Part shown: in pieces, positions 543 through 42,410 of the stretch
How the letters are laid out: every line of letters starts with the position of its first letter
Numbering within the stretch: position 1 is the first letter of the stretch
NCBI GenBank assembly: GCA_965249365.1
Contig: OZ252229.1
Span: 2,117,893-2,181,892 of the forward strand
Length of the DNA: 64,000 bases
Direction: 5' to 3'
Origin: Dehalococcoidia bacterium
GTDB taxonomy: Bacteria; Chloroflexota; Dehalococcoidia; Lucifugimonadales; UBA1123
Translations under genes and position numbers: made by a program
Notes under the pieces: generated by a model
The model's input: only the letters and a program-made list of their open reading frames with translations
Databases searched by the model: none
What the model was told of the DNA's origin: nothing

Positions 543-2240
543 ATGACAGGATCCGGACTTGTATCCGGTGGTGACCTGATCGCCAGGTCACTAAAGCTTG
601 AAGGCGTCACTACGGTCTTCACGTTGGCCGGCGATCACATCCTTCCCTCACTCGATGTCATGGCCGACGCCGGATTCCGGTTCATCGATACGCGCCACGA
701 GCAGGCGGCGGCGCACATGGCCGACGCATGGGGTCGGATCACCGGCGGGCCCGGCGTGGCGATGTACACGACACCCGGATTCGCGAACGCGATCCCAGGA
801 CTGGCTAACGCGTCGCACTCGGAGAGCCCCCTCCTCTCAATCAGCGGCTGCGCGGAGCTGCACGAGCTGGGCAGGGGAGCGATGCAGGAGATCGACCAGA
901 TCGGTATGGCCAGCCCGGTCACCAAGGGCTCTTGGATGGTCACCGATGCCCGGCGAATCCCGGACATCATCGCGACGGCGTTGCGTGTCGCCTACGAGGG
1001 ACGGCGAGGGCCGGTCCACCTCACGATTCCCGTCGATATACAGCAGCAGCTCGTGCCGGTCGACGAGGTCTCCTTCTACCAGCCTAACGAGTACCGCGGC
1101 CTCGGCGCGCCGCGGGCGTCCGATGACAGGATCGGGGACGCAATCGATGTACTGAGACACGCGGAGCGCCCCCTGATCATCGTGGGAAGCGCCGGCGCAT
1201 ACTCGGACTCCGGAGAGGCCCTTGAACGCCTCGTCGAGACCACGGGTGTCCCGATCATGACCGAGGGCGACGCCAGAGGCCTGATCTCGGACGCGCATCC
1301 CCGCTGCTACGGTTTCTTCGACTCGGGCCTCAATCGCGCAGCGCGGCTCCTGCGGGACGCCGATGCAATCGTCCTGATGGGCCGCAAACAAGACCTGATC
1401 GTCGGATATGCGATGCCACCCACAGTCTCGTCTGATGCGAGGATCATCCAGATCGACCCGTCCGCGGCAGAGATAGCGAGAAATCGGGGCGTCGCGGTCG
1501 GCATCGTTGGCGATGTCGAGGCGGTCGCGATGCAGCTCGCCGAGGAGGCCGTCAAGTACCGGTGGACGCCCCTTACCGCCTGGCTGAAGCGGCTGAACGT
1601 GGAGCGCGAGGCGCAGGCGGAATCGCTTGAGTCGCTCGCGCAACCCGAGTCACCGATGCACGCTACTTACGTTCACAAGGCGATCAGGAACCAAATCAGA
1701 GCCGACGACTTTATGGTGTTCGACGGCGGCGACTTCTGCCACTTCGGGCGCGCCTATGCGCCGGCGCTGTCGCCGAAGCGATGGTGGTACCTGCCAACGT
1801 CCGGGATGCTCGGGCAGTCCCTCCCTACGGCCCTCGCGGCCAAGGCCGCCCATCCCGACCGGAGGGTCTTCGTCTTTACCGGCGACGGGGCGTTCGGGTT
1901 CAATGGGATGGAGTACGATACGGCCGTCCGGCACAACCTGCCGATCATCGGTATCATGGGAAACGACTCCGCCTGGGGAATCGACAGGCAGATCCAGCTC
2001 GGTGTCTATGGCAAGCCCGTCGCGACCGACCTGCTTCCTTCCAGGTATGATCAGGTCGTCCGTGGCCTGGGAGGATACGGGGAGCTGGTTGAGCATCCGG
2101 ACGAGCTCGGACCCGCCGTCGAGCGGGCGATCAAGCTCGACCGGCCCGCGCTCCTCAACGTCATGGTGCAAAACGCGATTAGCCCGCGCGCCGAAGTCGC
2201 GATCAACAGGTGGAAGAGCCACTCGCCTCTGCCAATGTAA
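543..2240 (+). CDS. Thiamine-pyrophosphate-dependent enzyme (acetolactate synthase large subunit / oxalyl-CoA decarboxylase-like)
   Basis: 565-aa ORF. It has the N-terminal TPP pyrimidine-binding pattern (RHEQAAAHMADAWGR) and the C-terminal TPP motif GDGAFGFNGMEYDTAVRHNLP..GNDSAWG. A GGAG Shine-Dalgarno precedes the ATG. Confidence 0.85.
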   Translation: MTGSGLVSGGDLIARSLKLEGVTTVFTLAGDHILPSLDVMADAGFRFIDTRHEQAAAHMADAWGRITGGPGVAMYTTPGFANAIPGLANASHSESPLLSISGCAELHELGRGAMQEIDQIGMASPVTKGSWMVTDARRIPDIIATALRVAYEGRRGPVHLTIPVDIQQQLVPVDEVSFYQPNEYRGLGAPRASDDRIGDAIDVLRHAERPLIIVGSAGAYSDSGEALERLVETTGVPIMTEGDARGLISDAHPRCYGFFDSGLNRAARLLRDADAIVLMGRKQDLIVGYAMPPTVSSDARIIQIDPSAAEIARNRGVAVGIVGDVEAVAMQLAEEAVKYRWTPLTAWLKRLNVEREAQAESLESLAQPESPMHATYVHKAIRNQIRADDFMVFDGGDFCHFGRAYAPALSPKRWWYLPTSGMLGQSLPTALAAKAAHPDRRVFVFTGDGAFGFNGMEYDTAVRHNLPIIGIMGNDSAWGIDRQIQLGVYGKPVATDLLPSRYDQVVRGLGGYGELVEHPDELGPAVERAIKLDRPALLNVMVQNAISPRAEVAINRWKSHSPLPM

Positions 2241-2263
2241 CCGATACGGAGACCACTGCCAAA

Positions 2264-2842
2264 GTGTTCAGGTCGATCTTCGGAGGAAAGAAGAAGCAGT
2301 CTCAGGACCGCGTCCGCGCGGACGACTCGATCCGCTCGGCACGGGCGGGGGATGTCGTACTGATCCCCGGATTCTGGGACGACGGGGAAGACGCTTACCT
2401 GATCGTCGAGGAGATCAACCGCGTCGAGTCGGGATATGGCGAGTCGCACGAGGTGATCGGTGTCGACGGCGACCGGTCCGCGACAATCGAGTGGACCGAT
2501 CACGACGGGCTTCACATCTCGGCGATTCGGCAGGATCGGCCGATGGGTCTCTCGGTGTTGGGTGTCGACAGTGAGACGTTGACAAGGTGGGATACAAACA
2601 AGTCGCTCGACAACACCGTCAACTACGACGGACACGTCTACCGGTACCGGAACAGCTTCGAGTCCATCTATTTCAAGGGTGCAAGTCTCGAGGGCGAGGG
2701 GAACTGGACGTGGGAATTCGTCAGGGATGACGACGAAGGGGCTATCACGGTGGTAAAGTGGGGGGGCGTACCATTCGAAGTGTACGTGTCAGAGGCAATC
2801 TCGCCCCACATCGTCACGGTCTACACGAAGGGAAAGGGTTAA
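2264..2842 (+). CDS. DUF4178-like protein
   Basis: The ORF ends at 2842. I prefer the GTG at 2264, which has GGAG upstream and avoids the 31-nt overlap produced by the track start at 2210. The family call comes from remembered sequence character and from the adjacent DUF350 gene. Confidence 0.55.
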   Translation: MFRSIFGGKKKQSQDRVRADDSIRSARAGDVVLIPGFWDDGEDAYLIVEEINRVESGYGESHEVIGVDGDRSATIEWTDHDGLHISAIRQDRPMGLSVLGVDSETLTRWDTNKSLDNTVNYDGHVYRYRNSFESIYFKGASLEGEGNWTWEFVRDDDEGAITVVKWGGVPFEVYVSEAISPHIVTVYTKGKG

Positions 2843-2843
2843 A

Positions 2844-3731
2844 ATGGCAGACGCGTTCCTCAACGTCATTGAGACGATCCCGCGGGGACTCGTCTATGTA
2901 GTGATCGGAGTCGTGGTGCTGGTCATCGCCAGGCTGGTTCAGGACTTCCTCACCCCGTATAAGATTCAGGACCAGCTCAGCGACAGGGACAACGTCGCGC
3001 TCGCCCTGAGCATAACCGGCTACTATCTGGGAGTGATCATCGTCTTCCTCGGCGGAATGTACCAGCCGTACGTAGTGATCGCCGACAACAACCTCGGGTT
3101 CACCACGGCGTATTGGCAGGAGGTCGGACTCGTCTTCGGTTACTCCGTCGCCGGGATTATCGTCCTGAACATCGCCAGGATCGTCGTCGATAGGCTCGTG
3201 CTGCACGGGTTTAGTACCGAGAATGAGATCGTCACCGATCACAACGTCGGTACCGGCGCCGTCGAGGCCGCGGTCTACGTGTCGTCCGGACTGGTCATCG
3301 CCGGAGCGATCTCAGGTGAAGGAGGAGGCCCCGAAACCGCGCTGGCCTTCTTCGCCTTGGGCATGGTCGCCCTGATCATCTACGCGCTGGTGTACGAGTG
3401 GACCACTTCGTTCGACATTCACGACGAGATCGAGAAGAACAATGTCGCCGTCGGGGTCGCGCTGGCAGGGAACCTGATCGCGATCGGGGTCGTGGTGTTC
3501 AAGGCGGTATTTGGGGACTTCGTCGGATGGGGTGAGAGCATCGCCGGATTCCTGACCTACGCGATAGTCGGCTTCGTCCTCTTATACGCCGTAAGGTTCC
3601 TGGCTGACCTCGTCCTCTTTCCCGGAGTCAAAATCTCGGACGAGTTGGTAAATGACCGCAATGTTGGCGCCGCGTTCATCGAAAGCGCCGCGGTTATCAG
3701 CGTCAGCCTGATCCTCTTCTTCGCGATCTAG
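2844..3731 (+). CDS. Integral membrane protein with repeated DUF350-type modules
   Basis: 295-aa hydrophobic ORF. It has four repeats of the pattern D.(L/I)...(D/N)NVA/G followed by a TM helix (QDQLSDRDNVALAL, ENEIVTDHNVGTGA, HDEIEKNNVAVGVA, SDELVNDRNVGAAF). Confidence 0.6.
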   Translation: MADAFLNVIETIPRGLVYVVIGVVVLVIARLVQDFLTPYKIQDQLSDRDNVALALSITGYYLGVIIVFLGGMYQPYVVIADNNLGFTTAYWQEVGLVFGYSVAGIIVLNIARIVVDRLVLHGFSTENEIVTDHNVGTGAVEAAVYVSSGLVIAGAISGEGGGPETALAFFALGMVALIIYALVYEWTTSFDIHDEIEKNNVAVGVALAGNLIAIGVVVFKAVFGDFVGWGESIAGFLTYAIVGFVLLYAVRFLADLVLFPGVKISDELVNDRNVGAAFIESAAVISVSLILFFAI

Positions 3732-3747: not shown

Positions 3748-3768
3748 GCGCGGGCGTCTCGCCCGCGC
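3748..3768. repeat. GC-rich perfect hairpin (gcgcgggcg-tct-cgcccgcgc) between convergent genes; REP-like, possible bidirectional terminator
   Basis: 9-bp stem and 3-nt loop read directly. There is no T-tract, so terminator function is unproven. Confidence 0.4.
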
Positions 3769-3842: not shown

Positions 3843-4646
3843 TTAGCCTCGCCGAAGAGTTCCGCCGCCGCCGGTGAATCCACTCCCGGACCTGCCGAAC
3901 GAGCTCCCCCTCGAGCTGCTGCCCCATGACGACCGAACGCCTGTCCCGCTCGACTTGAAAGCGCCCGACGATCTCTGGTTGCTCAGATAGCTCTGCCTCG
4001 AAGAGCTGACACTCCGTCCCGCCTGATCGTAGGCGGACCCCCGGAACGACTTCTGGTTCTGGAAGTAACGCGTGTTCCGCGATACCTGGTTCCGGTAGTT
4101 GGCCGAGTTCCGGTATCCGGATCGATTTCGGCTGATCGTGTCGTAGTTCTGCCTCGGCGTCCTGTAGGAGTAGTAGCCGCCGACCGGCATGACCGCTCTC
4201 AGTAGCAGATAGCTGAACAGGAAGTTTCCCGCTCCGAAGCTGCTGCGGTAGTATGAGTTGGCCCCGTACCCTGTCATCTCGTGTGTGTCGTGGGCCTCGA
4301 CGATCGAAAACAGCCGATCGTCGGTCGCATCCTCGATCACGCCCGACGAGTTGAGGTCCTCCCATCCTTCCAGGACCATCTTCTCCCCGTCCTGCTCGAC
4401 GCGAATCAGCACGACCCCGTCGCCCTCGTAGATCGCGTTCACCCGTCCCTCAAAGGTCGACGCGCTATCGGACTGCTTGAACGCCTCTTGGACTTCGTCG
4501 AGGTTTATTCGTCCGGCCGCCCCGTCCGTCGCCGCCCAGGCCTCGTAGGTCGGACCCTCGTCGCAAGCCGCGGCAACCGGACCGGCGATCAGCGAGACCC
4601 CGGCGATTGCAGCGATGGTCGTCTTGTTGACTCTACGTCTCTTCAT
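3843..4646 (-). CDS. Lipoprotein with small N-terminal domain and long N/Q/S/R/G/Y-rich low-complexity C-terminal tail
   Basis: 267-aa ORF with a signal peptide and lipobox-like GPVAAAC. The last roughly 130 aa are compositionally biased (YRNSANYRNQVSRNTRYFQNQKSFRGS...SSSRGSSFGRSGSGFTGGGG). It lies 18 nt downstream of the SecA-like gene on the same strand. Confidence 0.7.
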   Translation of the reverse strand: MKRRRVNKTTIAAIAGVSLIAGPVAAACDEGPTYEAWAATDGAAGRINLDEVQEAFKQSDSASTFEGRVNAIYEGDGVVLIRVEQDGEKMVLEGWEDLNSSGVIEDATDDRLFSIVEAHDTHEMTGYGANSYYRSSFGAGNFLFSYLLLRAVMPVGGYYSYRTPRQNYDTISRNRSGYRNSANYRNQVSRNTRYFQNQKSFRGSAYDQAGRSVSSSRQSYLSNQRSSGAFKSSGTGVRSSWGSSSRGSSFGRSGSGFTGGGGTLRRG

Positions 4647-4664
4647 GTCACCACCGGGTACATT

Positions 4665-7568
4665 CTAACAGGTCAGGAGCTTGCATAGCTCGATCGGAAG
4701 CTCCTCGACCGGGCCAACGTCCACAATTGAGGTCCCCCCGATTTCAGAATCCGCGACCAGCGAGTCGATGACCGAGTCGGCCGCCATGGCACGGAGCTCT
4801 GCACCGGCGGTCCGGGCTTCCTCCGAGAATCGAGTCATCGCAGCCGCGTGGGAGTACGCACCCAGCGAGATGGACAGAGCCATGTCTTGGAGCAGGGCGA
4901 GGTGGTCTGGCCAGCGTTCGTCGACCGCGTTCAGGAATAGCTCCGACAGCCTGCGGCCAAACGCCTTCGGACCGAAGATAGTTCGATGATGAAACAGCCT
5001 GGCCTCGACCTCCCGATCGAGGATCTCGATGACCTCCGCCGGAGTGAGCTCCGCCGGTCCGGGCAGGGGAATTCCGAAGTCGTCTTCCAACGACATACGG
5101 ACCGACTCGTATCTCTCGTCATAGTCAATGCTGATTTCATACAAGGGGGCGGTTCGATGACGCACCCACTCTTCGCGACGCGCCGCAAGGTAGTCCGAAG
5201 CTGCCTCCCGGCCCATCAGCGACTCTCGGAACGCGTAGTACCCCCGGGATTCCCGCTCGATAACCGCCGAAAACTCCGAGGTCCAGGCGTCCGCGGCGCG
5301 GTCCTGTGACTCCGCGTCCTCTTGCGCCTTGACAAGCGCTGCCCGCACTTCTGGTCCCGAGACGCGGTCATGTGCCCGTCCCGGCATTGCCATGATGTCT
5401 CGCTGATGCCTGGAGAACGCCAACACCGGGTCCCCGATGTAGACAGAGGCCTTTGCAGCTCCTGTTCCGCCCTGACGCCCGGTACGGCCTCTGATCTGAC
5501 GCTCGACGCGCCGCGACGCCGGGAGCGACGCCATCAGGACGAGCAGCCCGGAGCCGGAGGTCACGCCATCATCCTCTCGCGACTCAACAACTATGTCCGT
5601 CCCACGGCCCGCCATCGCGGTGGCGACGGTGACCGCGCCGAGCCCTCCGGCCTTCGCCACGATCTCCGATTCCCTGGACGTGGTGGCGGCGTTCAGGACC
5701 TCGTGTTCCACCCCTCGTTCGATGAGAGCCTGGCTGAACGCGAGGGACAGCGCGACTGTGTCGACTACAAGGAGGACGGGTCTGCCCTGGCTGTTCCAGT
5801 ACACGACCTCACTCACGACTTGCCTGGTATGCGTCTCGCGGTCGAAGAACACCTCGCTGTCCTCGTCGACGCGCCGCGAGGGGACGCTTGGGGGAACAGC
5901 GACGGTCGGCGCCCCGTATCGTGCGGCCAAGCGTTCGGCCTCCTCGACCGCAGTGCCCGAAAGACCTGCGATCGTGGCGTACTTTGAGACCAGCGACTGG
6001 ATAGTCGTGCGGGCCAGGGCGTGGCCGCGTCCTCGTCTTCCCACTTCCTCCTTGGCCTCGAGCGCCTCGTGCAGCCCGTCCGTGTATCTGTGGGAGAACA
6101 GCGGACGGCCGTCAAGCGGGTCGACCAACGTTACCTCGTCATCGACGATGACATAGTCCTCATCGAGCTGGTGGAGGACACGCGCGCGCAGAAGCTGAAT
6201 CACCTCGAACGCCGCGGCCAGGTCGTCGAGCCCCTCGGAGACGACTCCCCAACCGCGATCCGTTAGTCTCAGTGTCGACCCGTCCAGGTCGACCACGAAC
6301 ATCAGCTCTGCGTCGAACCCATTCTCATCCTCTGCGATCAGCCTCAGCAGGTCATCCCTGATCCGTCGTGTTGACACGCCCAGCCGCTCCAACTCCGCGG
6401 TCAGCCGTGGGGTGACTCCCCCGGCCAGCAGGACCTCCGCCAGGTCTCGTCGCACGCTTTGGGTCGCTGTCGTCTCGTCGGCACACTGCGTCAGCAGACT
6501 CTCTATCCGTTCCGCCTGACACTCGATGATCTCGGATGCCACGTCCTCCTCTACGCCCTCGACGACTGATTCGGGGGCGGCGTCGCCGGAGATTATCAGC
6601 GGAGTACGGGCCTGGTCGATTAGCTGGTGGTCCACCTCGTCGATGATTGCGATGTCGAATGCGGGACTCACCCGCCTGTCGATCGAAGACGCTATGGAGT
6701 CCCTGAGGTAGTCGAAGCCCACCTCCCTCGCCGTCGTAAAGACGATCTGCCGCGTGTACTGGTGGGTCCTCTCGTCGCGGTCCATGGCGTCAACGACCAG
6801 ACCCGGGAGGATCCCTAACGACTCGAAAGCAGGGGCGAGATGCTCGCAGTCGCGGGAGGCCAGGTAGTCGTTGGCCGTCAGGACGTCGACGCGCCGACCT
6901 GCCGCGGCATAGACCGACGCCGCTATCGCTGACGCCAGGGTCTTGCCCTCGCCGGCGTCCATCTCGACGATCGCTCCCCTTAGAAGTAGAGCCGCGGCCG
7001 CAATCTGCTCAAGCGTTGGAACGAAGACCAGACAGCCTGAGTCGTCGAAGTCCGTCAGGCTCTGGTAGAACCCCGCGGGGAGCAGAATGTCGGCGTGGTA
7101 CTCCGTGCGGCTCCGGGCGAGAGCAATGACCAGCCAACGAAGCACGGACTCAGAACCCGGTGGGACCGGCGCCTGGCTCGCCGCAGAGGCAGCCCAACTC
7201 TCGACGGACTTGAACTCACCAGGCCGTGGTACGCGGTCTCTTGACGCGCGGTAGATCAGCTCGTCGGCCGCCAACCTCAAGGACTTCACTGGCCCCGACA
7301 GATTCTCCGCGTCGAGCAGCACTGCCCCCCAGATTCCGATCCGCCTGCGGATCGCGGTCTCGACGGCGACGATCGCCATGACGATTCGATCCGTGTCCAA
7401 CCCGTGATGTTCGTCGCTCGCCGCGTCCATCAGCCGCGAGCGCAGGTCCCAGTCGGAAGACGCCCCGTTTGTCTCCGCACGGACACGATTCGCGACGTCC
7501 ATCGCCCACGACAGCGTTGGCGGGTCCGTACCACGACCAAGGACGGCGGACATTCGGAGGTTGGTCAT
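4665..7568 (-). CDS. Divergent SecA-family ATPase (SecA paralog with N-terminal extension)
   Basis: 967 aa. SecA signature motifs are present: MDAGEGKTL (Walker A), VLTANDYLASRD, GFDYLRD, IIDEVDHQLIDQARTPLIISG, PPXD-like DEDYVIVDDEVTLVDPLDGRPL..RYTDGLHEALEAKE, LSGTA, VLNA, TAMAGRGTDI and RGRTGRQG. About 190 aa precede the NBD. The ATG overlaps the upstream stop (ATGA). Confidence 0.85.
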   Translation of the reverse strand: MTNLRMSAVLGRGTDPPTLSWAMDVANRVRAETNGASSDWDLRSRLMDAASDEHHGLDTDRIVMAIVAVETAIRRRIGIWGAVLLDAENLSGPVKSLRLAADELIYRASRDRVPRPGEFKSVESWAASAASQAPVPPGSESVLRWLVIALARSRTEYHADILLPAGFYQSLTDFDDSGCLVFVPTLEQIAAAALLLRGAIVEMDAGEGKTLASAIAASVYAAAGRRVDVLTANDYLASRDCEHLAPAFESLGILPGLVVDAMDRDERTHQYTRQIVFTTAREVGFDYLRDSIASSIDRRVSPAFDIAIIDEVDHQLIDQARTPLIISGDAAPESVVEGVEEDVASEIIECQAERIESLLTQCADETTATQSVRRDLAEVLLAGGVTPRLTAELERLGVSTRRIRDDLLRLIAEDENGFDAELMFVVDLDGSTLRLTDRGWGVVSEGLDDLAAAFEVIQLLRARVLHQLDEDYVIVDDEVTLVDPLDGRPLFSHRYTDGLHEALEAKEEVGRRGRGHALARTTIQSLVSKYATIAGLSGTAVEEAERLAARYGAPTVAVPPSVPSRRVDEDSEVFFDRETHTRQVVSEVVYWNSQGRPVLLVVDTVALSLAFSQALIERGVEHEVLNAATTSRESEIVAKAGGLGAVTVATAMAGRGTDIVVESREDDGVTSGSGLLVLMASLPASRRVERQIRGRTGRQGGTGAAKASVYIGDPVLAFSRHQRDIMAMPGRAHDRVSGPEVRAALVKAQEDAESQDRAADAWTSEFSAVIERESRGYYAFRESLMGREAASDYLAARREEWVRHRTAPLYEISIDYDERYESVRMSLEDDFGIPLPGPAELTPAEVIEILDREVEARLFHHRTIFGPKAFGRRLSELFLNAVDERWPDHLALLQDMALSISLGAYSHAAAMTRFSEEARTAGAELRAMAADSVIDSLVADSEIGGTSIVDVGPVEELPIELCKLLTC

Positions 7569-8866
7569 TCGTCGGTTTCGCCCGGCAGCAGCGTTCGCAT
7601 AGGACGTCTCAGTGAAGCCGGGTCTATTCCCGCCTTCAGCGCCGCCAGGATGCCGGCGGCCTCCCAGTAGTTCTCAGCGACGTGCAACTGGCCGGGCGCC
7701 CACGGTAGTGTGGACAGGTCGTTGCGCATGAGGTTGCGGCTCTCACGGACGGTGATGACCCGGATCCCTTGGTGGAGCGCCGCCAGCGTCGGAATCCCCA
7801 GGCATCCGTCTGGGATGACCAGGCAGTCGACGTCCTCGGCGGTTAGCGCGTCGCTCTGGTCCGACAGGGTCTCACCGGTAACGATCCGAGGCGCGCGGTG
7901 GAGGCCCTTGAGAACGCACTGCAGGAACGTCATCGAGACGATCTCAGCCGCCATTCGCGCGTCTACGATCCCGGGATCGATCGCGGCGACTTCGTCCGAC
8001 TCCATCATCGGTGAATGTGCCGCCGGCAGGTCGAGAACCGAGGACACGGCGTGGGTCAGCAGCGCCTCTACACCCCCCCAAGGATTGACCATCTCTCCTC
8101 CACTGGTGAAGTAGTCGTAGTGGTACTCGGTCGGTACTTCGATGACGGTGACCAGGGCGATGGCGTCGTAGCTCCCGCTTCTTTCGCTAAGCATGTTGAG
8201 CAGCGGCGCGAGCCCCTCGACCGTACCGGAGGCGCGCCCAGACGCCGTGTATCCGGCCACTACGTTGAGCGGAGGGTCGATCTCCATGATCTCCGGGCAG
8301 TTCAGCCCGTAGGTCGCCCGCCCCGCGTTCACCGCGTTGACCGAATACTGTCCAAACTTCGGATTGAAGCTTGAGTCGATCGCAACCAGGACCCGATTCG
8401 ACCGCGAAGGGCGGAGCCCGGCAGTGCCCATGAGCAGGCGGGAAAGCACGCTGCCCTCGACGTATAGGCCGTTGGGGGGCAACTCGTTTATGTCCGACGC
8501 GTTGACCACGTTAGGATGAGTGATCAGCGTGTCAGCCACCTCCGCGATCGCGATCGCGGCCGGCGTAGCGTCCCCGGCGTGGCCGCCAATCTCGGCGCCG
8601 ATTCCAGTTGGAACGACGAATACGACGTTGAACTCGGACTGGTCTTCGTACTCCCGGCGTCTGAACGCGAATACCGGCGGCATCGAGTCTACGGAGATGC
8701 CCTGTGCGACTCCGATCTCGCACTCGAAACGCCCATCGATCGATCTGGTGACGTTGAAACGGACCGGCGACTCGTCGTCTGCCAGCGTCCGGCCCACCTC
8801 GTCCGCGATGTCCGGAAACTCGATCGAGTCCCGGCTTATCGAGACCTGGCGCTCAAGTAGCCGCAA
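7565..8866 (-). CDS. Conserved hypothetical protein, DUF3326-like (family name from memory)
   Basis: 433-aa ORF with the motif VVPTGIGAEIGGHAGDATPAA. The TTG start overlaps the upstream gene by 14 nt, and the stop overlaps the SecA-like start by 4 nt. Confidence 0.6.
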   Translation of the reverse strand: MRLLERQVSISRDSIEFPDIADEVGRTLADDESPVRFNVTRSIDGRFECEIGVAQGISVDSMPPVFAFRRREYEDQSEFNVVFVVPTGIGAEIGGHAGDATPAAIAIAEVADTLITHPNVVNASDINELPPNGLYVEGSVLSRLLMGTAGLRPSRSNRVLVAIDSSFNPKFGQYSVNAVNAGRATYGLNCPEIMEIDPPLNVVAGYTASGRASGTVEGLAPLLNMLSERSGSYDAIALVTVIEVPTEYHYDYFTSGGEMVNPWGGVEALLTHAVSSVLDLPAAHSPMMESDEVAAIDPGIVDARMAAEIVSMTFLQCVLKGLHRAPRIVTGETLSDQSDALTAEDVDCLVIPDGCLGIPTLAALHQGIRVITVRESRNLMRNDLSTLPWAPGQLHVAENYWEAAGILAALKAGIDPASLRRPMRTLLPGETDE

Positions 8867-10061
8867 CGGTCATCGCCCCATTGCGGTCAAGGAACTCTCG
8901 GTACTCGTATCGTGAAACAAGTTGGAAGCGGCTCTCGTCGTCCATCATGTAGGCGTCAGGGACGGGAATCCCGTTGAAGGGAGCGGCGCGTGAGTGTGTG
9001 TACGCCCCGGAGTCGAGGATCGCCAGCCGCTCCCCGGTTGAGACCGGAGCCCCGAATCGATACTCGCCGACAACGTCGCCTGCGAGACACGACCGGCCCG
9101 CCAGCGTCACAGGGTGCCGAGAACCCGCCTGCGGGCCCACCACCGCCGGCCTGTATCCGTACTCGAACACCTCTGGCAGGTGACTCGTGGAGGTATCCAG
9201 GACCGCGATGTCCACGCCGTCATGCCTGAACACGTCCAGCACCTCGGTAACCAGAAACCCCGCGTTCTGAACGAGGGTGGTGCCCGGCTCGACGAAAACT
9301 TTCAGCCCGAACTCGCTCGACAGCCAGTTCACGGCCTCGACCAGCGGCCCGGCGTCCGTCTCTGAGCCGAGGTAGTAGCCGCCGCCCAGGTTGATCCACG
9401 TGAGCCATTCGAGCCGCATGAGCACGTCGTTCAGCGAGAAGACCGTCTCGGCAAGCTGCCCGAGGTCGTCCGACTCACAGTTGTTGTGGACGTGAATCCC
9501 ATCGACCGCGCATGCCGCTGCCGGCAGTGGCGAAGCGGACGACAAGGCTGATACCTGGACCCCCAGCTTGGAGCCTGGACGACACGGGTCGATCCGGACA
9601 TCCGAGGCGAACGACACCTCAGGGTTCACTCGCAGCCCGAGCGACGCCCGTCCGTCGTTCATCTGAAGCGCGGACGCGACCTGTGCGTACGAATTGAGCG
9701 TCACGTAGTCGGCGAGTGAGAGGACTTCCGCCATCTCGGCGCCCGAGTAGGCTGGGGAGTAGCAGTGAATCGACTGCCCTCGAGTCGCGACGGACGCGGC
9801 GATCCGCGCCTCGAAGGCGGCGCTCGCCGCAAACCCCTCTACGCAGGGGGCCAGCGCCTCCAGCACCGGTACAAGCACGCTAGGCTTGAGCGTGTATAGA
9901 AGATTGCAGCCCGCTTGCGACGCAATCACAGAGGCGTGGTTGGCGTTCTCCCGAAGCACCGCCGTAGAGTAGACGTACGCCGGCGTCGTTGGAACGTCCA
10001 ATGCCGCCCACGCCTGCGATTCAACCTGTTGATCCAATTCTACGGTCACCCCCAGAACCAA
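8853..10061 (-). CDS. Carboxynorspermidine/carboxyspermidine decarboxylase-like PLP-dependent decarboxylase
   Basis: 402-aa ORF. Motifs resemble the NspC family: LYTLKP (candidate PLP lysine), HVHNNCES, NLGGGYY, EPGTTL, GRSCLAGDVVGEY and FNGIPVP. The start is uncertain (TTG at 10061; alternatives at 10049 and 10037). Confidence 0.7.
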   Translation of the reverse strand: MVLGVTVELDQQVESQAWAALDVPTTPAYVYSTAVLRENANHASVIASQAGCNLLYTLKPSVLVPVLEALAPCVEGFAASAAFEARIAASVATRGQSIHCYSPAYSGAEMAEVLSLADYVTLNSYAQVASALQMNDGRASLGLRVNPEVSFASDVRIDPCRPGSKLGVQVSALSSASPLPAAACAVDGIHVHNNCESDDLGQLAETVFSLNDVLMRLEWLTWINLGGGYYLGSETDAGPLVEAVNWLSSEFGLKVFVEPGTTLVQNAGFLVTEVLDVFRHDGVDIAVLDTSTSHLPEVFEYGYRPAVVGPQAGSRHPVTLAGRSCLAGDVVGEYRFGAPVSTGERLAILDSGAYTHSRAAPFNGIPVPDAYMMDDESRFQLVSRYEYREFLDRNGAMTVAAT

Positions 10062-10076
10062 TGTAGCACAGTTGCG

Positions 10077-11456
10077 TTACACCAACTCCCTTAGCTGGAT
10101 GACCGCCAGTCCCATCTCCGGGCTGCCCCCTTCGAACCTCCGGTATCGCGCAAGCAGGTGATCGTAGCAGTCCAGGACATACCCTGCGGCCTCCGGGTCG
10201 GACTCCTGGAATCTCAACCCTATCCGCCCGTCGAGATTCCACTCGGCGCGGACCTCGAATTCCAGACTGTTCGGTCCGGCCAGGTTTCCGTACAGCTCCA
10301 CTAGCCCGTCGAACTCCTCGTCGTCTCGAAACGGGGCCGGGGATACCAGGAATTCAGGAGTGATCGTCAGCCCGAGCTCGTTGTCGAACACCTGAACCAG
10401 ATCGATCTCCGGGATGAAGCTCTCCATCGCGTAGCAGAGGCCCTCTCCCAGGTCGTCCGGCGCCCTGTGGTAGTAGAACTCCTCGTCGTATGTCGCCATG
10501 CGCACCGGCAACGGACGCTGATCGTTGAGGATCTCGGAGCAGCGCGACCCTCGCTCGAAGAGAAAGGGGATGTTTCCGTTCGTCGCGTCGACCAACAGCG
10601 GTTCCTCGTCGAGTCGAAACTCGAGCGCCAGATGCTGCCAAAATCGCATGGCGTCCTGCGCGCCATGGAAGTCGAACGACTCCAGGACGTGCCTGAGTCG
10701 CTCGGTCGGTAGTGGTCCTATAGCGTCCGGTCCCGCGAAAACGTACCCTGGGTCAAAGCCGTACGCGTCAGCAATGAACCTGAGCGCCTGCACCTTCTCG
10801 GAACAGATACCGCCGCGGCCTTCAATGATGTTCAGGATCGTCTCGTCCCCGGTCTTGTACGGCAGCTTCGGCCCGGAGAACCGCGAGTAGTTCTCGAAGG
10901 GACTGTCCCAAATTGCGCGGGCAACGCGGTGGAGGAACTCAAGCCGCCCCTCTTTCGTACCGAGCAGCGGCTGTAAGGCGCCCTGCGAGTCGTACTCGTC
11001 GGAAAGGGCTGCGTCTACGAAGCTCCGAAACAACGGCTCATTCCGCTCCCAACGCCGGCGATTGAAGCCGGTCCAGTTGCGAGAGTAGTCGCACTCGCTG
11101 CGGTCGATCAAGACGTCGACGAGCTGCACGTCCGTACCTCCCAACGTGGCAGGTATCCACGGCGGAGGCGCACCCGCGTCCAGCGCGTGCGGACCGTCCC
11201 TGAGCACCGTCTTAGGGTGCAAGGGCCCGGGATAGCCGTCGTCCTCGAGCAGGAGGACAAGGTCCCGGAGCGTCTCGAACGCCTCCAGGTCCTCGGGCAG
11301 CAGACGGTTTCCGGCGACCAGCGGTCCAACGTCCTCAACCTCGAGATACAGCCCTGTAAGTTGCCTCAGGGTTAGGTCCGAGTCCTCATCCGCGGTCCTA
11401 AGGACGCAGGACCTCCCGGTCAGGTAGTCGGTCCATCTGAGGAAGAGTGGGAGCAT
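10077..11456 (-). CDS. Transglutaminase-like (Cys-His-Asp papain-fold) protein
   Basis: The ORF runs to 11474. I prefer the ATG at 11456 because of the GAGAGG Shine-Dalgarno. The core pattern RGGICSEKVQALRFIADAYGFDPGYVFAG ... WQHLALEFRLDEEPLLVDATNG resembles the transglutaminase-core arrangement G.C..F/A...GIP.R.V.G / H.W.E / D.T. Confidence 0.55.
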   Translation of the reverse strand: MLPLFLRWTDYLTGRSCVLRTADEDSDLTLRQLTGLYLEVEDVGPLVAGNRLLPEDLEAFETLRDLVLLLEDDGYPGPLHPKTVLRDGPHALDAGAPPPWIPATLGGTDVQLVDVLIDRSECDYSRNWTGFNRRRWERNEPLFRSFVDAALSDEYDSQGALQPLLGTKEGRLEFLHRVARAIWDSPFENYSRFSGPKLPYKTGDETILNIIEGRGGICSEKVQALRFIADAYGFDPGYVFAGPDAIGPLPTERLRHVLESFDFHGAQDAMRFWQHLALEFRLDEEPLLVDATNGNIPFLFERGSRCSEILNDQRPLPVRMATYDEEFYYHRAPDDLGEGLCYAMESFIPEIDLVQVFDNELGLTITPEFLVSPAPFRDDEEFDGLVELYGNLAGPNSLEFEVRAEWNLDGRIGLRFQESDPEAAGYVLDCYDHLLARYRRFEGGSPEMGLAVIQLRELV

Positions 11457-11513
11457 CCCGCCTCTCAGCGACAAGGGTTCCGGTCAATCCGCCAGTTGCA
11501 GGTTGTGGGCCAG

Positions 11514-11542
11514 ATCATAGCTGTGCCCTCAGACGCGGTCAA
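11514..11542 (-). promoter_or_regulatory. Putative sigma70-type promoter for the minus-strand operon (TTGACC-17 nt-TATGAT)
   Basis: The hexamers were read on the reverse complement, about 60 nt upstream of the ATG at 11456. Confidence 0.4.
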
Positions 11543-11642
11543 ACGGCAGACCGCTGATACTTTTCGTTCCCGCGGAGGAAAACGCGGCAAATGTACCGCC
11601 GATCGTGCGCGTGTCTCGAAGCCCTGCCTGCGATATAATCGG

Positions 11643-12383
11643 ATGATGACGTCGACACGTCCCAGCCCTCTCCATACCGCGTTGGTCGCTCTACTCGTGG
11701 CGCTCACTCTGTCGCTTGCCTGTGGGCAGGCGGAGGAGTCCGCCGAGCTTGTCAGCGCGCAGCCGACCGCAGCTCCCACTACACCCTCTCCGACTTTCAC
11801 TCCGATTCCTCCTAGTCCCACTCCACAGCCGTCGCCGACCGCAACACCCGTGCCGCCGACGCCGACGCCGCGCAAACTCGAGCCAACCGTCACGGCCACT
11901 CCCGCTCCGACGCCCGTCACCATCAGGCGCCCCTCCTCGGCGTTTCCGGCCATCGAGTTCCAGATCGAAACTTTCGCGGGCGAGACACTCGCCCTGTCGG
12001 ACCTGGAAGGGCAGGTTGTTGTCCTCAACTTCTGGGCTTCGTGGTGTCCCCCCTGTCGATGGGAGATGCCGTTCTTCGAAGAGATATCCCAGGAGTACAG
12101 CGGTCAGGACGTGACCTTCTTTGGTGTCGCCGTGTCGGACACCCTGGAGAACGCGGCTGGATTCGCAAACATGGTCGGTGTTACATATCCGAACGGGTTG
12201 GATGCGTCCGGGCGGATTGGTAGAGAGTACGAGGTGCGGTCGCTCCCCACGACCTTCCTGATCGATAGGGAAGGGGTGGTGCAGCGACGGGTCGCAAACG
12301 CGGTCCCGGAAGCGATCCTGAGGATCTTTATCGACGGTCAATTGAAGTCGCCCCCGGGTGCAAAACCAGAGGTCTTAAATTGA
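11643..12383 (+). CDS. TlpA/ResA-family thiol:disulfide oxidoreductase lipoprotein with Pro/Thr-rich linker
   Basis: Signal peptide and lipobox (LSLAC), a P/T/S-rich linker, then a thioredoxin fold with WASWCPPCRWEMP. The ATG at 11643 is chosen inside the longer track ORF. Confidence 0.8.
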   Translation: MMTSTRPSPLHTALVALLVALTLSLACGQAEESAELVSAQPTAAPTTPSPTFTPIPPSPTPQPSPTATPVPPTPTPRKLEPTVTATPAPTPVTIRRPSSAFPAIEFQIETFAGETLALSDLEGQVVVLNFWASWCPPCRWEMPFFEEISQEYSGQDVTFFGVAVSDTLENAAGFANMVGVTYPNGLDASGRIGREYEVRSLPTTFLIDREGVVQRRVANAVPEAILRIFIDGQLKSPPGAKPEVLN

Positions 12384-12435: not shown

Positions 12436-12573
12436 ATGCCAAAGCGAACATATCAGCCGAAGAATAGACGGCGCGCTCGCGTGCACGGGTTCAGGTCAAG
12501 AATGCGGACACGCGGCGGAAGATCCGTATTGAAGAGGCGCATGTTCAAGGGCAGGCAGAGGCTCACCGTCTGA
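12436..12573 (+). CDS. rpmH: 50S ribosomal protein L34
   Basis: Hand translation gives [45 protein letters not shown] (45 aa). It is below the ORF-track cutoff and sits upstream of rnpA as in most bacteria. Confidence 0.95.
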
Positions 12574-12636
12574 TCCGGACAAACCGGCATCTGTAGCGCC
12601 CCAGGCGACCTCACGCAGCTGTTCTGGGGAGAGTCG

Positions 12637-12975
12637 ATGGACAGGGCGGGCCGCCTCCGGAAAACCAGGGATTTCGAAACGGTACGACGGGAAGGGAATA
12701 GCTGGTCCGATCGAAGACTCGTCCTCGTCGCCAGGCCAACCGGCGCGCCGAGGACGCGGATCGGATTCGCGGTCAGCAGCCGGCTCGGAAATGCCGTTGT
12801 CCGAAACAAGATAAAACGAAGGTTGAAGTCGGCCGCCGCCGAGCTTGCTCCGAAGTCAGGATGGGACCTGGTGGTCATAGCGAGGATCGGATCGAAGGCG
12901 ACAGGCTTTCAGGACTTGAAGAGGTCGTTGAGCCGGTTGATAGTCCGGGGCCGTCTTAACGAGAATCAGCAGTAA
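12637..12975 (+). CDS. rnpA: Ribonuclease P protein component
   Basis: 112-aa basic ORF containing FAVSSRLGNAVVRNKIKRRLK. Its position between rpmH and yidD supports the call. Confidence 0.9.
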   Translation: MDRAGRLRKTRDFETVRREGNSWSDRRLVLVARPTGAPRTRIGFAVSSRLGNAVVRNKIKRRLKSAAAELAPKSGWDLVVIARIGSKATGFQDLKRSLSRLIVRGRLNENQQ

Positions 12976-12980
12976 TCCGT

Positions 12981-13208
12981 GTGGGTGGTATCAGAGTGAC
13001 AAGGAACGTGGCGCTCGGGGCAATCAGGTTGTACCAGGTTGCGGTCTCACCCTACCTGACTGGACTGTGCAGGCATTCGCCGACCTGCTCGAACTACGCA
13101 TATGAGGCAATCGTCAGACACGGACTGGGTCGGGGCGCGTGGTACGCCATGAAGCGCCTCATGCGCTGCCGTCCAATGGGCACTCGCGGCTTTGATCCCG
13201 TTCCATAG
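12981..13208 (+). CDS. yidD: Membrane protein insertion efficiency factor YidD
   Basis: 75 aa. Contains IRLYQ..SP......CRHSPTCSNYAYEAI..HG...G.W.A.KRL.RC.P. Confidence 0.9.
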   Translation: MGGIRVTRNVALGAIRLYQVAVSPYLTGLCRHSPTCSNYAYEAIVRHGLGRGAWYAMKRLMRCRPMGTRGFDPVP

Positions 13209-13261
13209 CTCCCTGTTCTGTACTGAATAGCCAGGATGCCCGGACGCCGGGCATCACCACT

Positions 13262-14449
13262 ATGAACACTTACCACAGCTCAGCTACCAAGACCGTCAAG
13301 CGGTCGCCGGTGGCGCTTATCATCGTACTCATCCTCGCCGCGCTCTTTGTGGGCGCGTGCTCCAGCAGCGGGTGCGAGCGATTCAGCAATCCTCAGGGAT
13401 GGTCTTCCGGCACTGTCAGCGGCGACGACCTCTACATCGGCACGATGGAGGGAGAGGTCCTTGCCGTGGAGAAAGAGACCGGAGATCAGCGGTGGCGCAA
13501 GGCGCTCCCGACCGAAGAAGATCTCGATCGGGGCATCTATGGGGCGCCCGCGGTTACCGACGATGTTGTGCTGGTTGGCGGCTACGACGGCGTGCTGTAC
13601 GCGTACGACCGGCAGGGCGACCAGCTCTGGCAGGAACGCTTTCCCGGCAGGATCGTCGGAGGGCCCACGGTCTACGGCAACCTCGCTCTCGTCGGAACAG
13701 GGTCCGTGGGCCAGTCGCGAGGATCGAGAGGCGCCCTCTACGCGATCGACATCCAGGAAGGCGATCCCGTCTGGAGCTACAACACTTCAGGGCCGATTTG
13801 GTCCTCGCCGGCCGTGGTTGACGGCGTCGCCTACGTCGGCTCACTCGATCATCACGTGCATGCCGTGAACGTATCCGACGGGACCGAGAAGTGGAGCTAC
13901 AAGACCGGAGGCGCGGTCGTCTCCGGATTTGCCGTCCATGACGGCCTGGTCATGTTCGGAGGATTTGACAGCACGTTCTACGCGCTCGACGCTGATTCCG
14001 GAAACCTCGTCTGGGACTTTCACGGCTCGACCCGATGGTTCTGGGCGGCCCCACTCGTGCACGATGGGACCGTTTACGCGCCCTCTCTCGACGGCACGCT
14101 CTACGCCCTGGACGTCCAAACCGGCAGCCTCGAATGGCGATACACGACAGAGGGCCAGCTTGTTGGCACGCCCGCGGTCGTGAATGACCTGATCGCCGTA
14201 CCGGTTGCGGATGGCGGAAACTCGAAGATCGTTCTGATCGAGTTCAATGGCGCTGAACAGGGCGCCTGCCTGATCGGTGATGACGTCCGCACCTCGATTG
14301 AGGTTTCAGGCGACCTGATATACTTTGCCTCAACCGACCACACAATCAGGGCCCTTCGGATCAAGGGCACCGGCAACCCCGACGAGGAGTGGGTGTACGT
14401 GACCGACGCGGACAACCCTTACCCTCACGACCGGGCAAAGGCGTGCTGA
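13262..14449 (+). CDS. PQQ-like beta-propeller repeat lipoprotein (BamB-like fold)
   Basis: 395 aa with a signal peptide and Cys (FVGAC). It carries repeated G.(L/V)YA(L/V)D..(T/D)G...W motifs typical of PQQ-like propeller blades. Confidence 0.8.
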   Translation: MNTYHSSATKTVKRSPVALIIVLILAALFVGACSSSGCERFSNPQGWSSGTVSGDDLYIGTMEGEVLAVEKETGDQRWRKALPTEEDLDRGIYGAPAVTDDVVLVGGYDGVLYAYDRQGDQLWQERFPGRIVGGPTVYGNLALVGTGSVGQSRGSRGALYAIDIQEGDPVWSYNTSGPIWSSPAVVDGVAYVGSLDHHVHAVNVSDGTEKWSYKTGGAVVSGFAVHDGLVMFGGFDSTFYALDADSGNLVWDFHGSTRWFWAAPLVHDGTVYAPSLDGTLYALDVQTGSLEWRYTTEGQLVGTPAVVNDLIAVPVADGGNSKIVLIEFNGAEQGACLIGDDVRTSIEVSGDLIYFASTDHTIRALRIKGTGNPDEEWVYVTDADNPYPHDRAKAC

Positions 14450-14453
14450 TAGA

Positions 14454-15386
14454 TTGGAATTCTTAGAGTTCCTGGCTGACACCTGGAATCTAGTCATCAT
14501 CCAGCCCATGATAAATGGGCTGGTTCTGCTATACTCGTCGCTCTTCTCCAACTTCGGAATCGCTATCATCGCGTTCACGCTGCTGGTCAGGGTTATCATG
14601 ATCCCGCTGACTGTCAAGCAGAGTCGCCAGATCAAGGCGATGTCCGCGCTCCAGCCGCTGATGAAGGAGATCCAGGAAAAGTACAAAGGAGATCGGGGAC
14701 GGGCATCACGGGAGACGATGGCGCTCTACAAGGAGCGGGGCGTCAATCCGATTGGCTGCTTGGGACCCATGTTCATACAGTTCCCGATCTGGATCGGGCT
14801 GTACCAGTCGATCATTCAGACCGTGCCATCCGCCCCCGAAAGTCTCGTCAGCCTGTCTCGACACCTCTACGACTGGCTCCCACAGGTGCACAGCGTCATC
14901 CCGATCGACAGCGGTTTCCTCTGGATGGACCTGGCCAGGCCGGACCCCTCCCCGATAGTCATGCCGATCCTGGTCGGCGTTTCGATGTGGATGATGCAGA
15001 AGATGACGACGATGCCCACGGCCGATCAACGTCAAGCGTCGACCAACAGGATGATGCTTTGGATGATGCCGGCCATGTTCGGCTTCTTTACCTTGAATTT
15101 CCCGAGCGGCCTCGCGGTCTACTGGGTAGTCTCGAACGTGGTTGGTCTGGTGATCCAGGGATTCGTGACCGGTTGGGACCCGATTTTGAACCTGTATAAG
15201 TTTGGTCGCGGAAGTACCGAAGAGATCGCAACGGCCTCTGCGCTTGCACCCGCGCCGACTGCCCCCGCCGAGGAGACGAATGATGCGCGAGATGGAGATG
15301 TCCGCCAGAACGGTGGAAGAAGCAATCGAGGTCGCCCTAAAGGAGCTAGACGCCGCTCGCAGCGACGTCGAAATCGACGTCGTTAG
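14454..15386 (+). CDS. yidC: Membrane protein insertase YidC (short type) with Arg-rich C-terminal tail
   Basis: 310 aa. It has the conserved core ..TLLVRVIMIPLTVKQ..S...M..LQP.M.EIQEKYK.D......E.M.LYKE.GVNP..GCLP..IQ.PI. and the tail RRRSQRRRNRRR. Confidence 0.9.
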   Translation: MEFLEFLADTWNLVIIQPMINGLVLLYSSLFSNFGIAIIAFTLLVRVIMIPLTVKQSRQIKAMSALQPLMKEIQEKYKGDRGRASRETMALYKERGVNPIGCLGPMFIQFPIWIGLYQSIIQTVPSAPESLVSLSRHLYDWLPQVHSVIPIDSGFLWMDLARPDPSPIVMPILVGVSMWMMQKMTTMPTADQRQASTNRMMLWMMPAMFGFFTLNFPSGLAVYWVVSNVVGLVIQGFVTGWDPILNLYKFGRGSTEEIATASALAPAPTAPAEETNDARDGDVRQNGGRSNRGRPKGARRRSQRRRNRRR

Positions 15387-15918: not shown

Positions 15919-15933
15919 TCTCGCAACACTCCC

Positions 15934-42120: not shown

Positions 42121-42159
42121 AGGCGGTTAGCGACGCACCCTACCTGAGTCGGGGATGCA

Positions 42160-42410
42160 ATGGGCACTGGGAGCGCGGGCATCCTGCCCGCATGGGGGTG
42201 GTGGGGTGCATCCTCGGACCGCAGTGCATCCGTTTGTCCTGAGCCCGTCGCAAGGGGCACTGGGAGCGCGGGCATCCTGCCCGCATGGGGGCGGTGGGGT
42301 GCATCCTCGGACCGAAGTTGCAACGTTCGTCCTGAGCCCGTCGAAGGACGAAGCCCGAACCACCGTAGTGCATCCGTTCGTCCTGAGCCCGTCGAAGGAC
42401 GAAGCCCGCA
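42160..42410. repeat. Cluster of REP-like hairpin elements: 2 copies of unit A (gggcactgggagcgcgggcatcctgcccgcatggggg..., 93-nt period) and 3 copies of unit B (gtcctgagcccgtcgaaggacgaagcccg)
   Basis: The copies were read directly at 42162/42255 (A) and 42224/42317/42368 (B). The hairpins are gcgggca-tcc-tgcccgc and cgtcct..aggacg. The cluster lies between convergent secF and an ADH gene. Confidence 0.8.

Follow-up and report, generated by a model that had tools for sequence, protein, structure and literature searches.

Results

A SecA-like gene in a packed run of five genes

What is a gene for a SecA-type motor doing in one packed run with genes for a decarboxylase, a DUF3326 protein, a Cys-His-Asp enzyme, and a lipoprotein? 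The question is posed by a 64,000-nucleotide stretch of a Dehalococcoidia bacterium (contig OZ252229.1, assembly GCA_965249365.1, positions 2,117,893 to 2,181,892; the whole stretch is hereafter called the window), in which ORF (open reading frame) calling gives five tightly packed genes, g1 to g5, all on the minus strand between positions 3843 and 11474. A first-pass annotation had proposed that they form an undescribed operon whose SecA paralogue exports the lipoprotein, which a transglutaminase-like enzyme would then modify. We put forward, with confidence somewhat short of even, that the locus belongs to a lineage-specific envelope cluster of SAR202/Dehalococcoidia (Chloroflexota), in which an accessory SecA and its lipoprotein are joined to a polyamine-linked DUF350/DUF4178 module. 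Every part of this cluster is of a known kind (accessory SecA, NspC/DUF3326 polyamine synthesis, an enzyme of arylamine N-acetyltransferase (NAT)/transglutaminase fold, and a DUF350/DUF4178 module); it is the combination that appears to be new.

In order of transcription, the genes encode a 465-residue Cys-His-Asp enzyme of NAT/transglutaminase-superfamily fold (g1, 10077–11474), a 402-residue fold-III pyridoxal phosphate (PLP) decarboxylase of the NspC family (g2, 8853–10061), a 433-residue DUF3326 (PF11805) protein (g3, 7565–8866), a 967-residue divergent SecA-like ATPase (g4, 4665–7568), and a 267-residue lipoprotein (g5, 3843–4646). The junctions are a 15-nt gap (10062–10076) between g1 and g2, a 14-nt overlap (8853–8866) between g2 and g3 that presupposes a TTG start of g3, an ATGA overlap (7565–7568) between g3 and g4, and an 18-nt gap (4647–4664) between g4 and g5; the coordinates given for these genes and junctions by the first-pass annotation were all exact. 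Facing g5 on the plus strand are genes for a DUF4178-family protein (2210–2842, its real start probably near 2264) and a DUF350 (YjfL-family) membrane protein (2844–3731), transcribed in the same direction as each other, convergent to g1–g5, and conserved together.

The conserved core joins the SecA-like and lipoprotein genes to a convergent DUF350/DUF4178 pair

From a profile scan with g1, which yielded 173 confirmed relatives, we kept 80 genome loci, called their ORFs, and clustered them. Counts were taken in the 58 species-level GTDB loci with a g1 homologue and at least 9 kb on both sides, and they are minimum counts because ORF calling was crude and the neighborhood was limited to 10 kb. 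All 80 loci come from Dehalococcoidia, SAR202, or Chloroflexota metagenome-assembled genomes (MAGs), and the closest relative of the window's g1 is 62% identical. We found the SecA-like gene in 47 of the 58 loci, g5 in 41, the decarboxylase in 34, DUF350 in 31, an acidic protein called c5 also in 31, and DUF3326 in 29. The recurring order begins (DegV), g1, (a 268-residue protein, c9), (a K+ channel with an RCK domain), (decarboxylase, DUF3326) and continues (PaaK-like AMP-binding enzyme), (a 221-residue protein, c13), SecA-like, g5, (the acidic 363-residue c5), and convergent DUF350 and DUF4178. In the window and its near relatives the cluster is at its smallest: c5, c9, the K+ channel, the AMP-binding enzyme, and DegV are all missing. 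The packing of g1–g5 is not a chance arrangement, because the same neighborhood recurs in many genomes. Three loci (L006, L011, and L022) appeared to have lost the SecA-like gene, a reading that we rejected because in their sister loci this gene is positioned at the very limit of the 10-kb flank.

An independent set was formed by marine metagenome contigs anchored on g5. The SecA-like gene lies directly upstream of g5 in 31 of 31 such contigs; of 33 metagenome loci, all 33 have c5 after g5 and 31 have a convergent DUF350 gene; and wherever a listed contig extends ~7 kb or more upstream of g5, g1 is present on that side. Even in a remote contig, the order SecA-like, g5-like, c5-like is retained at only 25%, 38%, and 23% identity, respectively. 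Thus, the first-pass annotation was right that the combination is both undescribed and co-conserved: it had made its proposal depend on co-conservation, and the cluster does recur in genomes and metagenome contigs alike, while our literature searches found no description of the gene combination or of the SecA-like clade, and no link between NspC and SAR202.

We conclude that the conserved core is g1 ... SecA-like gene, lipoprotein (and c5), facing DUF350 and DUF4178. The natural unit is therefore not the five-gene operon first proposed, which left out the convergent DUF4178/DUF350 pair (2210–3731) and with it the tie to described polyamine-linked envelope operons, and which took in a decarboxylase/DUF3326 pair that is mobile within the cluster. 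This pair occupies three positions (between g1 and the SecA-like gene, upstream of g1, and beyond DUF350), the DUF3326 gene always adjoining the decarboxylase gene, and remains inside the cluster at each of them. That a mobile pair is kept within the cluster points to selection on linkage rather than inherited synteny.

g4 is a fast-evolving SecA-like ATPase with intact motor motifs

The SecA assignment of g4 was borne out by its Pfam domains, and those of g2 and g3 also held. All four SecA Pfam domains score above their cut-offs (SecA_DEAD, PP_bind, P-loop_SecA, and SecA_SW; PF07517, PF01043, PF21090, and PF07516), and the protein has the marks of a SecA superfamily ATPase: Walker A GEGKT, DEVD, MAGRGTDI, and GRTGRQG, together with the PPXD and wing/scaffold domains. 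Across 56 members of the family, GEGKT, ANDYLA.RD, DE.D, MAGRGTDI, and R.R.GRQG are invariant, and the N-terminal 160 residues, an insert at 330–420, and the C-terminal third are poorly conserved. The scores fall below every equivalog cut-off, both for housekeeping SecA (TIGR00963, 400 bits against 800; NF009538, 404 against 814) and for SecA2 (TIGR04221, TIGR03714, TIGR04397, and NF012136, 349, 348, 361, and 314 bits against 725, 930, 1085, and 1100), and nine family members score 405–591 bits against TIGR00963, all nine below 800. Against SecA and SecA2 proteins of the PDB, g4 aligns at ~290 bits, best with Clostridioides difficile SecA2 and level with Bacillus subtilis SecA. Its N terminus is remodeled, with ~185 residues replacing profile positions 1–80, so that the SecA_DEAD match begins at position 81; ~40 representatives at 50% identity have this type of extension in common. 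This large clade of SecA-like ATPases appears undescribed in the literature, in which we also found no informative link between SecA and SAR202 and none between SecA2 and Chloroflexota or Dehalococcoidia.

Three observations suggest that g4 is probably an accessory, substrate-dedicated SecA: its fast divergence (28–53% identity among genomes whose YidC is 72–82% identical), its scores at about half the equivalog cut-off, and the invariable downstream lipoprotein gene. No SecY paralogue lies within 10 kb of g4, in line with the first-pass view of a SecA paralogue without a SecY partner, and neither SecY2, Asp1-3, nor glycosyltransferases occur among the annotated neighbors within 10 kb or the conserved neighborhood families. 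No second SecA-like gene was found in the 64-kb window or in any of 82 loci (±10 kb around matches).

SecA-like paralogues may be more widespread than this cluster. Three candidates for canonical SecA (P0260, P0283, and P0389) were rejected as such: their sequences are divergent SecA-like proteins outside the clade with the N-terminal extension, carrying NAGEGKT or SGEGKT where canonical SecA has TGEGKT, plus ANDYLA.RD, and one of them clusters with a Tara Oceans mesopelagic sequence. A fourth candidate, P0379, is a canonical SecA, but from a low-GC organism, and was rejected as that of this lineage.

g5 is a largely folded lipoprotein

The protein that always follows the SecA-like motor has an ordinary Sec-type lipoprotein signal peptide with a lipobox (...AAAC) whose Cys28 is invariant in the family alignment. 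The "disordered-tail lipoprotein" of the first-pass annotation was correct as to the lipoprotein and only partly so as to the tail. In the AlphaFold2 model (mean predicted local distance difference test (pLDDT) score 77), residues 35–227 are confident, and the conserved N/Q/S/R/Y-rich region at 165–227 is modeled as four helices (pLDDT ~90); only residues 231–267, with a Gly/Ser/Arg-rich C terminus, are of low confidence. Thus, the model suggests that g5 is mostly folded and that only the last ~37 residues are disordered. Conserved motifs are YR.S..Y..Q..RN..YF..QKSF, SS.RQ.Y, SGAFK.S.TGVRSSWG, and GGF.GGGG; Gln187 is invariant and Gln198 nearly so. g5 also has a globular part; the fold has no match in the PDB (best E 0.19), and the sequence has none in Pfam.

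In four loci (L030, L034, L036, and L040), the SecA-like gene is followed by a tandem of two g5-like ORFs. A truncation or frame shift within the low-complexity tail affects many g5 entries in the databases, probably because of assembly errors in long-read MAGs.

In most genome and metagenome loci g5 is directly followed by c5, an acidic protein of ~360 residues without a Pfam match that has been lost in the window's clade. It may serve the basic g5 tail, or else the SecA-like protein, as a chaperone-like partner.

The decarboxylase and DUF3326 genes resemble a polyamine-forming pair

g2 matches PF02784/PF00278 and aligns over its full length (residues 25–393) with its best PDB match, the carboxynorspermidine decarboxylase 9eaf (E 3e-64), with the PLP-lysine position (YTLK) and the EPG and CLAGD motifs in register. 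It differs from known NspC in scoring well under the equivalog cut-off (TIGR01047, 242 bits against 409). By sequence, g2 is thus a member of the carboxy(nor)spermidine decarboxylase family, related at family level only, and not an NspC equivalog. g3 covers 336 of 337 positions of PF11805 (E 9e-94, 314.6 bits against a cut-off of 25) and has no sequence relative in the PDB.

The closest parallel is the pavettamine pathway of Paraburkholderia, in which PavA, with an NspC-like decarboxylase domain, and PavB, a DUF3326 protein, are both required for the symmetric triamine N-(5-aminopentyl)pentane-1,5-diamine (bioRxiv 10.64898/2026.06.12.731819); beyond this preprint we found no functional evidence for DUF3326 proteins in the literature. 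Because PavA and PavB are required for this triamine, we postulate that the two enzymes g2 and g3 act jointly as a polyamine synthase, on the pattern of the carboxy(nor)spermidine dehydrogenase/decarboxylase route, and the earlier suggestion that the decarboxylase supplies an amine appears plausible by the same analogy. The pairs are alike in coupling an NspC-like decarboxylase with a DUF3326 protein and differ in that the Rieske domain of PavA is missing from g2 and that there is no PavC at the window cluster.

g1 has a Cys-His-Asp core closest in modeled fold to arylamine N-acetyltransferases

g1 has 684 homologues, and its family is almost confined to Dehalococcoidia/SAR202. It has no Pfam match even at E ≤ 10 and no NCBIfam match, and its family profile finds no relative among PDB sequences. 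C218, H275, and D290 are invariant in an alignment of 43 sequences. The AlphaFold2 model (pLDDT 88, predicted TM-score 0.88) retrieves in Foldseek, at the top, arylamine N-acetyltransferases, N-acyl/malonyltransferases, and the amide synthase GdmF (E 9e-5 to 1e-2, TM-score ~0.4), the NAT matches having a Foldseek probability of ~1.0 and E values of 9e-5 to 1e-3; transglutaminases and PNGase rank far behind (E > 0.03). The first-pass label "transglutaminase-like/papain fold" thus holds at the level of fold and superfamily, for which both the fold and the triad speak, and finds no counterpart in a Pfam or PDB sequence match; as modeled, the nearest chemistry would be acyl transfer to an amine. 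g1 has in common with the NATs and GdmF the triad, a His-to-Asp spacing of 15 residues, and the core fold. It differs from them in having ~190 more residues and additional domains at both termini, in the lack of sequence-level similarity, and in a TM-score of only ~0.4.

No signal peptide, hydrophobic N terminus, or transmembrane (TM) segment was found in g1, and its N terminus is modeled as folded β-strands. For these reasons g1 should be cytoplasmic, and any modification of g5 by g1 should precede export, as glycosylation does in accessory Sec (aSec) systems, and not follow it as the first-pass annotation had proposed. Modification before export would give a rationale for a private SecA.

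A subclade of g1 homologues (44–46% identity; loci L001, L027–L029, L033, L051, and L074) stands without SecA-like, lipoprotein, or polyamine genes, among genes for a 2-hydroxyacid dehydrogenase, two PALP enzymes, a DegT aminotransferase, PhyH, a major facilitator superfamily (MFS) transporter, and an S9/DLH hydrolase. These neighbors suggest a small-molecule role for the enzyme family.

The convergent pair links the cluster to described DUF350 operons

The DUF350 protein matches PF03994 with E 4.6e-52 over two DUF350 stretches, as an 8-TM protein. Four of six members of the adjoining family match PF13785 (DUF4178; best E 1.1e-10), the window copy itself falling below threshold. Comparative genomics has described operons of DUF350, DUF4178, a lipoprotein, and a spermidine-synthase-like protein (Ravi et al. 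2024, PMC11237479). A second operon type in that study combines DUF350, a DUF1190 lipoprotein, DUF2491, a K+ channel, and a glutathionylspermidine-synthase-like ATP-grasp ligase (PMC11237479); it appears to correspond to yjfIJKLMC of Escherichia coli, whose genes have the same domains. In the MG1655 RefSeq record, YjfC and YgiC are annotated as peptide-spermidine ligases and each adjoins a DUF1190 lipoprotein; their physiological substrate is described as not known (Pederick et al. 2023, as cited in PMC11762307). The published operon groups are defined by a PspA plus CesT/Tir dyad, dyad-less variants carrying other replacements (PMC11237479). The present cluster agrees with them in having a DUF350 protein and a DUF4178 gene next to it.

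We dropped the idea that g5 and the DUF4178 protein are homologues of YjfM/DUF1190 and YjfK/DUF2491, for which hhalign found nothing. Because g5 and YjfM show no homology, the parallel to the yjf operon is architectural, anchored by DUF350 and, at family level, by DUF4178.

A further polyamine–DUF350 linkage is provided by a plasmid of Ensifer sp. PDNC004 (NZ_CP070352.1, 802–806 kb; locus L085), the only plasmid match to the 8-TM DUF350 protein (36% identity). As judged by eye from translations, this gene is flanked by S-adenosylmethionine (AdoMet)-decarboxylase-like and membrane-fused spermidine-synthase-like ORFs, with an agmatinase-like gene adjoining.

Noncoding elements and surroundings

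The promoter-like TTGACC-17-TATGAT noted in the first pass is present at 11514–11542 on the minus strand, with 10 of 12 consensus matches, 40 nt upstream of the TTG start of g1 (11474) and inside the divergent intergenic region; we regard it as a putative promoter by consensus match only. The surrounding 10 kb contain five such sites, compared with 1.5 ± 1.0 in shuffled sequence. Between the convergent g5 and DUF350 genes lies a GC-rich hairpin, GCGCGGGCG-AGA-CGCCCGCGC (3748–3768), with a perfect 9-bp stem; it may tentatively be a bidirectional terminator, and it has no U-tract and was not called by a terminator scan. The window contains no Rfam family and no tRNA. An anti-phage defense reading of the cluster was dropped because PADLOC gave no match for any of its seven proteins.

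Divergent to g1, a plus-strand gene (11496–12383) encodes a thioredoxin-fold protein of TlpA/AhpC type, in which a lipoprotein-like signal (...LSLACG) is combined with a long Pro/Thr-rich linker; the gene is kept beside g1 in the close clade. yidD and the YidC insertase gene adjoin the operon in the same clade (12453–16000 in the window, with a PQQ-like β-propeller gene inserted), and relatives also have rnpA and jag; this synteny is gone in more distant cluster-bearing genomes. Farther away, the window holds a 122-bp tandem repeat (58292–58897, five copies, 95% matches) in a stretch of strong G skew (GC skew up to +0.56); the repeat units all start with GAGGAAA/GAGGAAC runs. A 93-bp repeat (2.1 copies), 16 kb from it, has the core GGCACTGGGAGCGCGGGC in common with it, and there is also an array of 11 CCTCACT copies. 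The repeat-related positions are 42157–42347, 58271–58322, 60242–60280, and 44447–44522; no Rfam family matches these repeats.

Discussion

A proposed route from polyamine to exported lipoprotein

Together, these results lead us to propose the following scheme for the cluster. g2 and g3 together would make a polyamine, as shown for the homologous PavA and PavB. In the cytoplasm, g1 would form a thioester acyl-enzyme on Cys218 and then an amide with the amine, either N-acylating the polyamine or coupling it to the carbonyl of a protein or peptide; we place an amide-forming step here because of the fold, the triad, and the acyl-activating genes of sister loci. Since its gene invariably adjoins that of g5, g4 would drive export of g5 through SecYEG, as in SecA2-only systems, perhaps in a form for which the housekeeping route is poorly suited. 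DUF350 and DUF4178 would act at the membrane on the polyamine product or on the lipoprotein, a role suggested by the recurrence of their associations in other phyla. The idea of a dedicated motor with a lipoprotein substrate, already raised in the first-pass annotation, fits the sequence data, in that the lipoprotein gene always follows the SecA-like gene. The full version, in which this motor exports or inserts a single lipoprotein that g1 has modified in the cytoplasm with a polyamine made by the cluster, is in our judgment unlikely as it stands.

Several findings weigh against an accessory SecA-lipoprotein pair joined to a polyamine-linked module. In ~40% of loci, no decarboxylase/DUF3326 pair was detected within 10 kb. 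The comparison of g5 with YjfM/DUF1190 gave an hhalign probability of 1%, the DUF4178 protein shows no similarity to YjfK/DUF2491 by hhalign, and the PspA/CesT dyad is not among the annotated conserved neighborhood families. In the 56 SecA-like sequences, the tyrosine of the two-helix finger is not conserved, which weakens the assumption of classical SecY-dependent translocation, and neither the window nor the 82 loci (±10 kb around matches) showed a second SecA-like gene, so that the accessory status of g4 is only probable. Finally, the fold match of g1 is weak (TM-score ~0.4, E ~1e-4), and its lone subclade shows that the enzyme can occur apart from SecA-like, lipoprotein, and polyamine genes and so has no obligatory link to them.

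Alternative explanations

One alternative would be synteny without joint function, with g1–g3 as a metabolic operon (for a polyamine or a small-molecule amide) beside the lineage's highly diverged housekeeping secA and an unrelated lipoprotein gene. It would explain why no second SecA-like gene was seen in the window or the 82 loci, why the window's clade adjoins the housekeeping genes rnpA-yidD-yidC-jag, and why so many loci were without the decarboxylase/DUF3326 pair. We nevertheless think it quite unlikely: the cluster persists amid changed surroundings, the yidC neighborhood being absent in most distant loci; the pair re-enters the cluster at three positions; and the SecA-like protein diverges far more than YidC does and, at only half the equivalog score threshold, does not resemble an essential housekeeping SecA. 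The order originally proposed, with g5 exported by the SecA paralogue and then processed, cross-linked, or aminated on Gln by g1 outside the cell, draws on the invariant SecA-like–lipoprotein adjacency, on the transglutaminase-superfamily Cys-His-Asp core of g1, on the invariant Gln187 and nearly invariant Gln198 of g5, and on an amine source encoded alongside (g2). This order is very improbable in our estimation, given that g1, with neither a signal peptide nor a TM segment and with an N terminus of modeled β-strands, should be cytoplasmic, that in fold it comes nearest to small-molecule acyltransferases of NAT type, transglutaminases matching only at E > 0.04, that the supposed tail of g5 is largely structured in the model, and that a g1 subclade sits in a small-molecule context.

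In another account, the cluster serves a small-molecule pathway only: an N-acylated polyamine would be made and handled, g5 would be a lipoprotein that binds or senses and not a target of modification, and the SecA-like protein would be the export factor of g5. The NAT/amide-synthase fold of g1 agrees with this, as do the PaaK-like AMP-binding enzyme, fatty-acid-binding DegV, and RCK K+ channel of sister loci and the PLP enzymes, DegT aminotransferase, and MFS exporter beside lone g1 genes. Yet the window has none of the acyl-activating genes and no acyl donor can be named, and we hold this account to be quite unlikely. Much the same low standing goes to the view that g4 is the motor or chaperone of the DUF350/DUF4178 module, replacing PspA/CesT and moving or inserting the conjugate or lipoprotein via DUF350 and not SecYEG. 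Here it counts that the linkage of DUF350/DUF4178 to the SecA-like gene is no looser than that of g5, that the chaperone/PspA dyad of published DUF350 operons is not among the conserved families annotated here, that g4 has a remodeled N terminus and an unconserved finger-tip tyrosine, and that the acidic, cytoplasmic c5 follows g5 in most lineages. Against it, g4 retains all SecA domains, including the preprotein cross-linking and wing/scaffold domains, and the signal peptide of g5 is of the ordinary Sec type; moreover, we know of no precedent for a SecA that works with a non-SecY channel. On balance, we prefer the reading of an envelope cluster in which an accessory SecA and a lipoprotein are joined to the polyamine-linked module.

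Implications

SAR202 bacteria, for the most part still uncultured, rank with the most abundant bacterial groups of the dark ocean and of sponges. That they conserve a cluster with a SecA-like motor of its own suggests a specialized envelope function. The cluster also unites three poorly understood things, namely a SecA-like clade, the DUF3326/NspC-like pair, for which a link to chemistry is very recent, and the DUF350/DUF4178/lipoprotein modules. If the full version of our scheme, with a polyamine-modified lipoprotein, is true, it would suggest by analogy that the substrates of the peptide-spermidine ligases YjfC and YgiC are the neighboring lipoproteins, and, if g5 is a polyamine-conjugation target, the same logic would be directly testable in E. 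coli.

Comparison with known systems

Compared with the published DUF350 operons (PMC11237479), the cluster has in common DUF350, DUF4178, a lipoprotein, and polyamine enzymes, as well as, in sister loci, a ligand-gated K+ channel. Like yjfK-L-M-C and tolC-ygiBC of E. coli, it sets an amide-forming enzyme (YjfC or YgiC there, g1 by our proposal here) beside a lipoprotein, and g5 resembles YjfM in layout: a lipobox, a small domain, a hydrophobic stretch, and a tail that is rich in Ser/Gly/Arg/Tyr and ends in Gly. Where the published operons have an ATP-grasp ligase and AdoMet decarboxylase/aminopropyltransferase, the cluster has a Cys-His-Asp NAT-fold protein and the NspC-like plus DUF3326 pair, and it has a SecA-like ATPase in addition.

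The motor is best compared with SecA2. SecA2-only systems export few dedicated substrates through the general SecYEG channel, and mycobacterial SecA2 exports certain lipoproteins. g4 is like the SecA2 of mycobacteria, Listeria, and C. difficile in being a divergent SecA with intact motor motifs, no dedicated SecY2, and presumably few substrates. It is unlike them in scoring below all four NCBIfam SecA2 cut-offs, in its remodeled N terminus of ~185 residues, in its linkage to polyamine and NAT-fold enzymes, and in having a candidate substrate gene directly downstream in every locus with enough upstream sequence. The aSec systems, in which SecA2/SecY2 export serine-rich-repeat (SRR) glycoproteins, would on our reading be similar in placing a dedicated SecA beside a Ser/Arg/Gly/Asn-rich substrate, and in encoding alongside it cytoplasmic enzymes that could modify that substrate before export. 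They differ in that SecY2, Asp1-3, and glycosyltransferases were not found at the cluster, and in that g5 is a largely folded lipoprotein of 267 residues and not a giant SRR adhesin. A pathway of the kind we describe in full would be the polyamine analogue of glycosylation-coupled aSec export, an equivalence that we consider rather unlikely.

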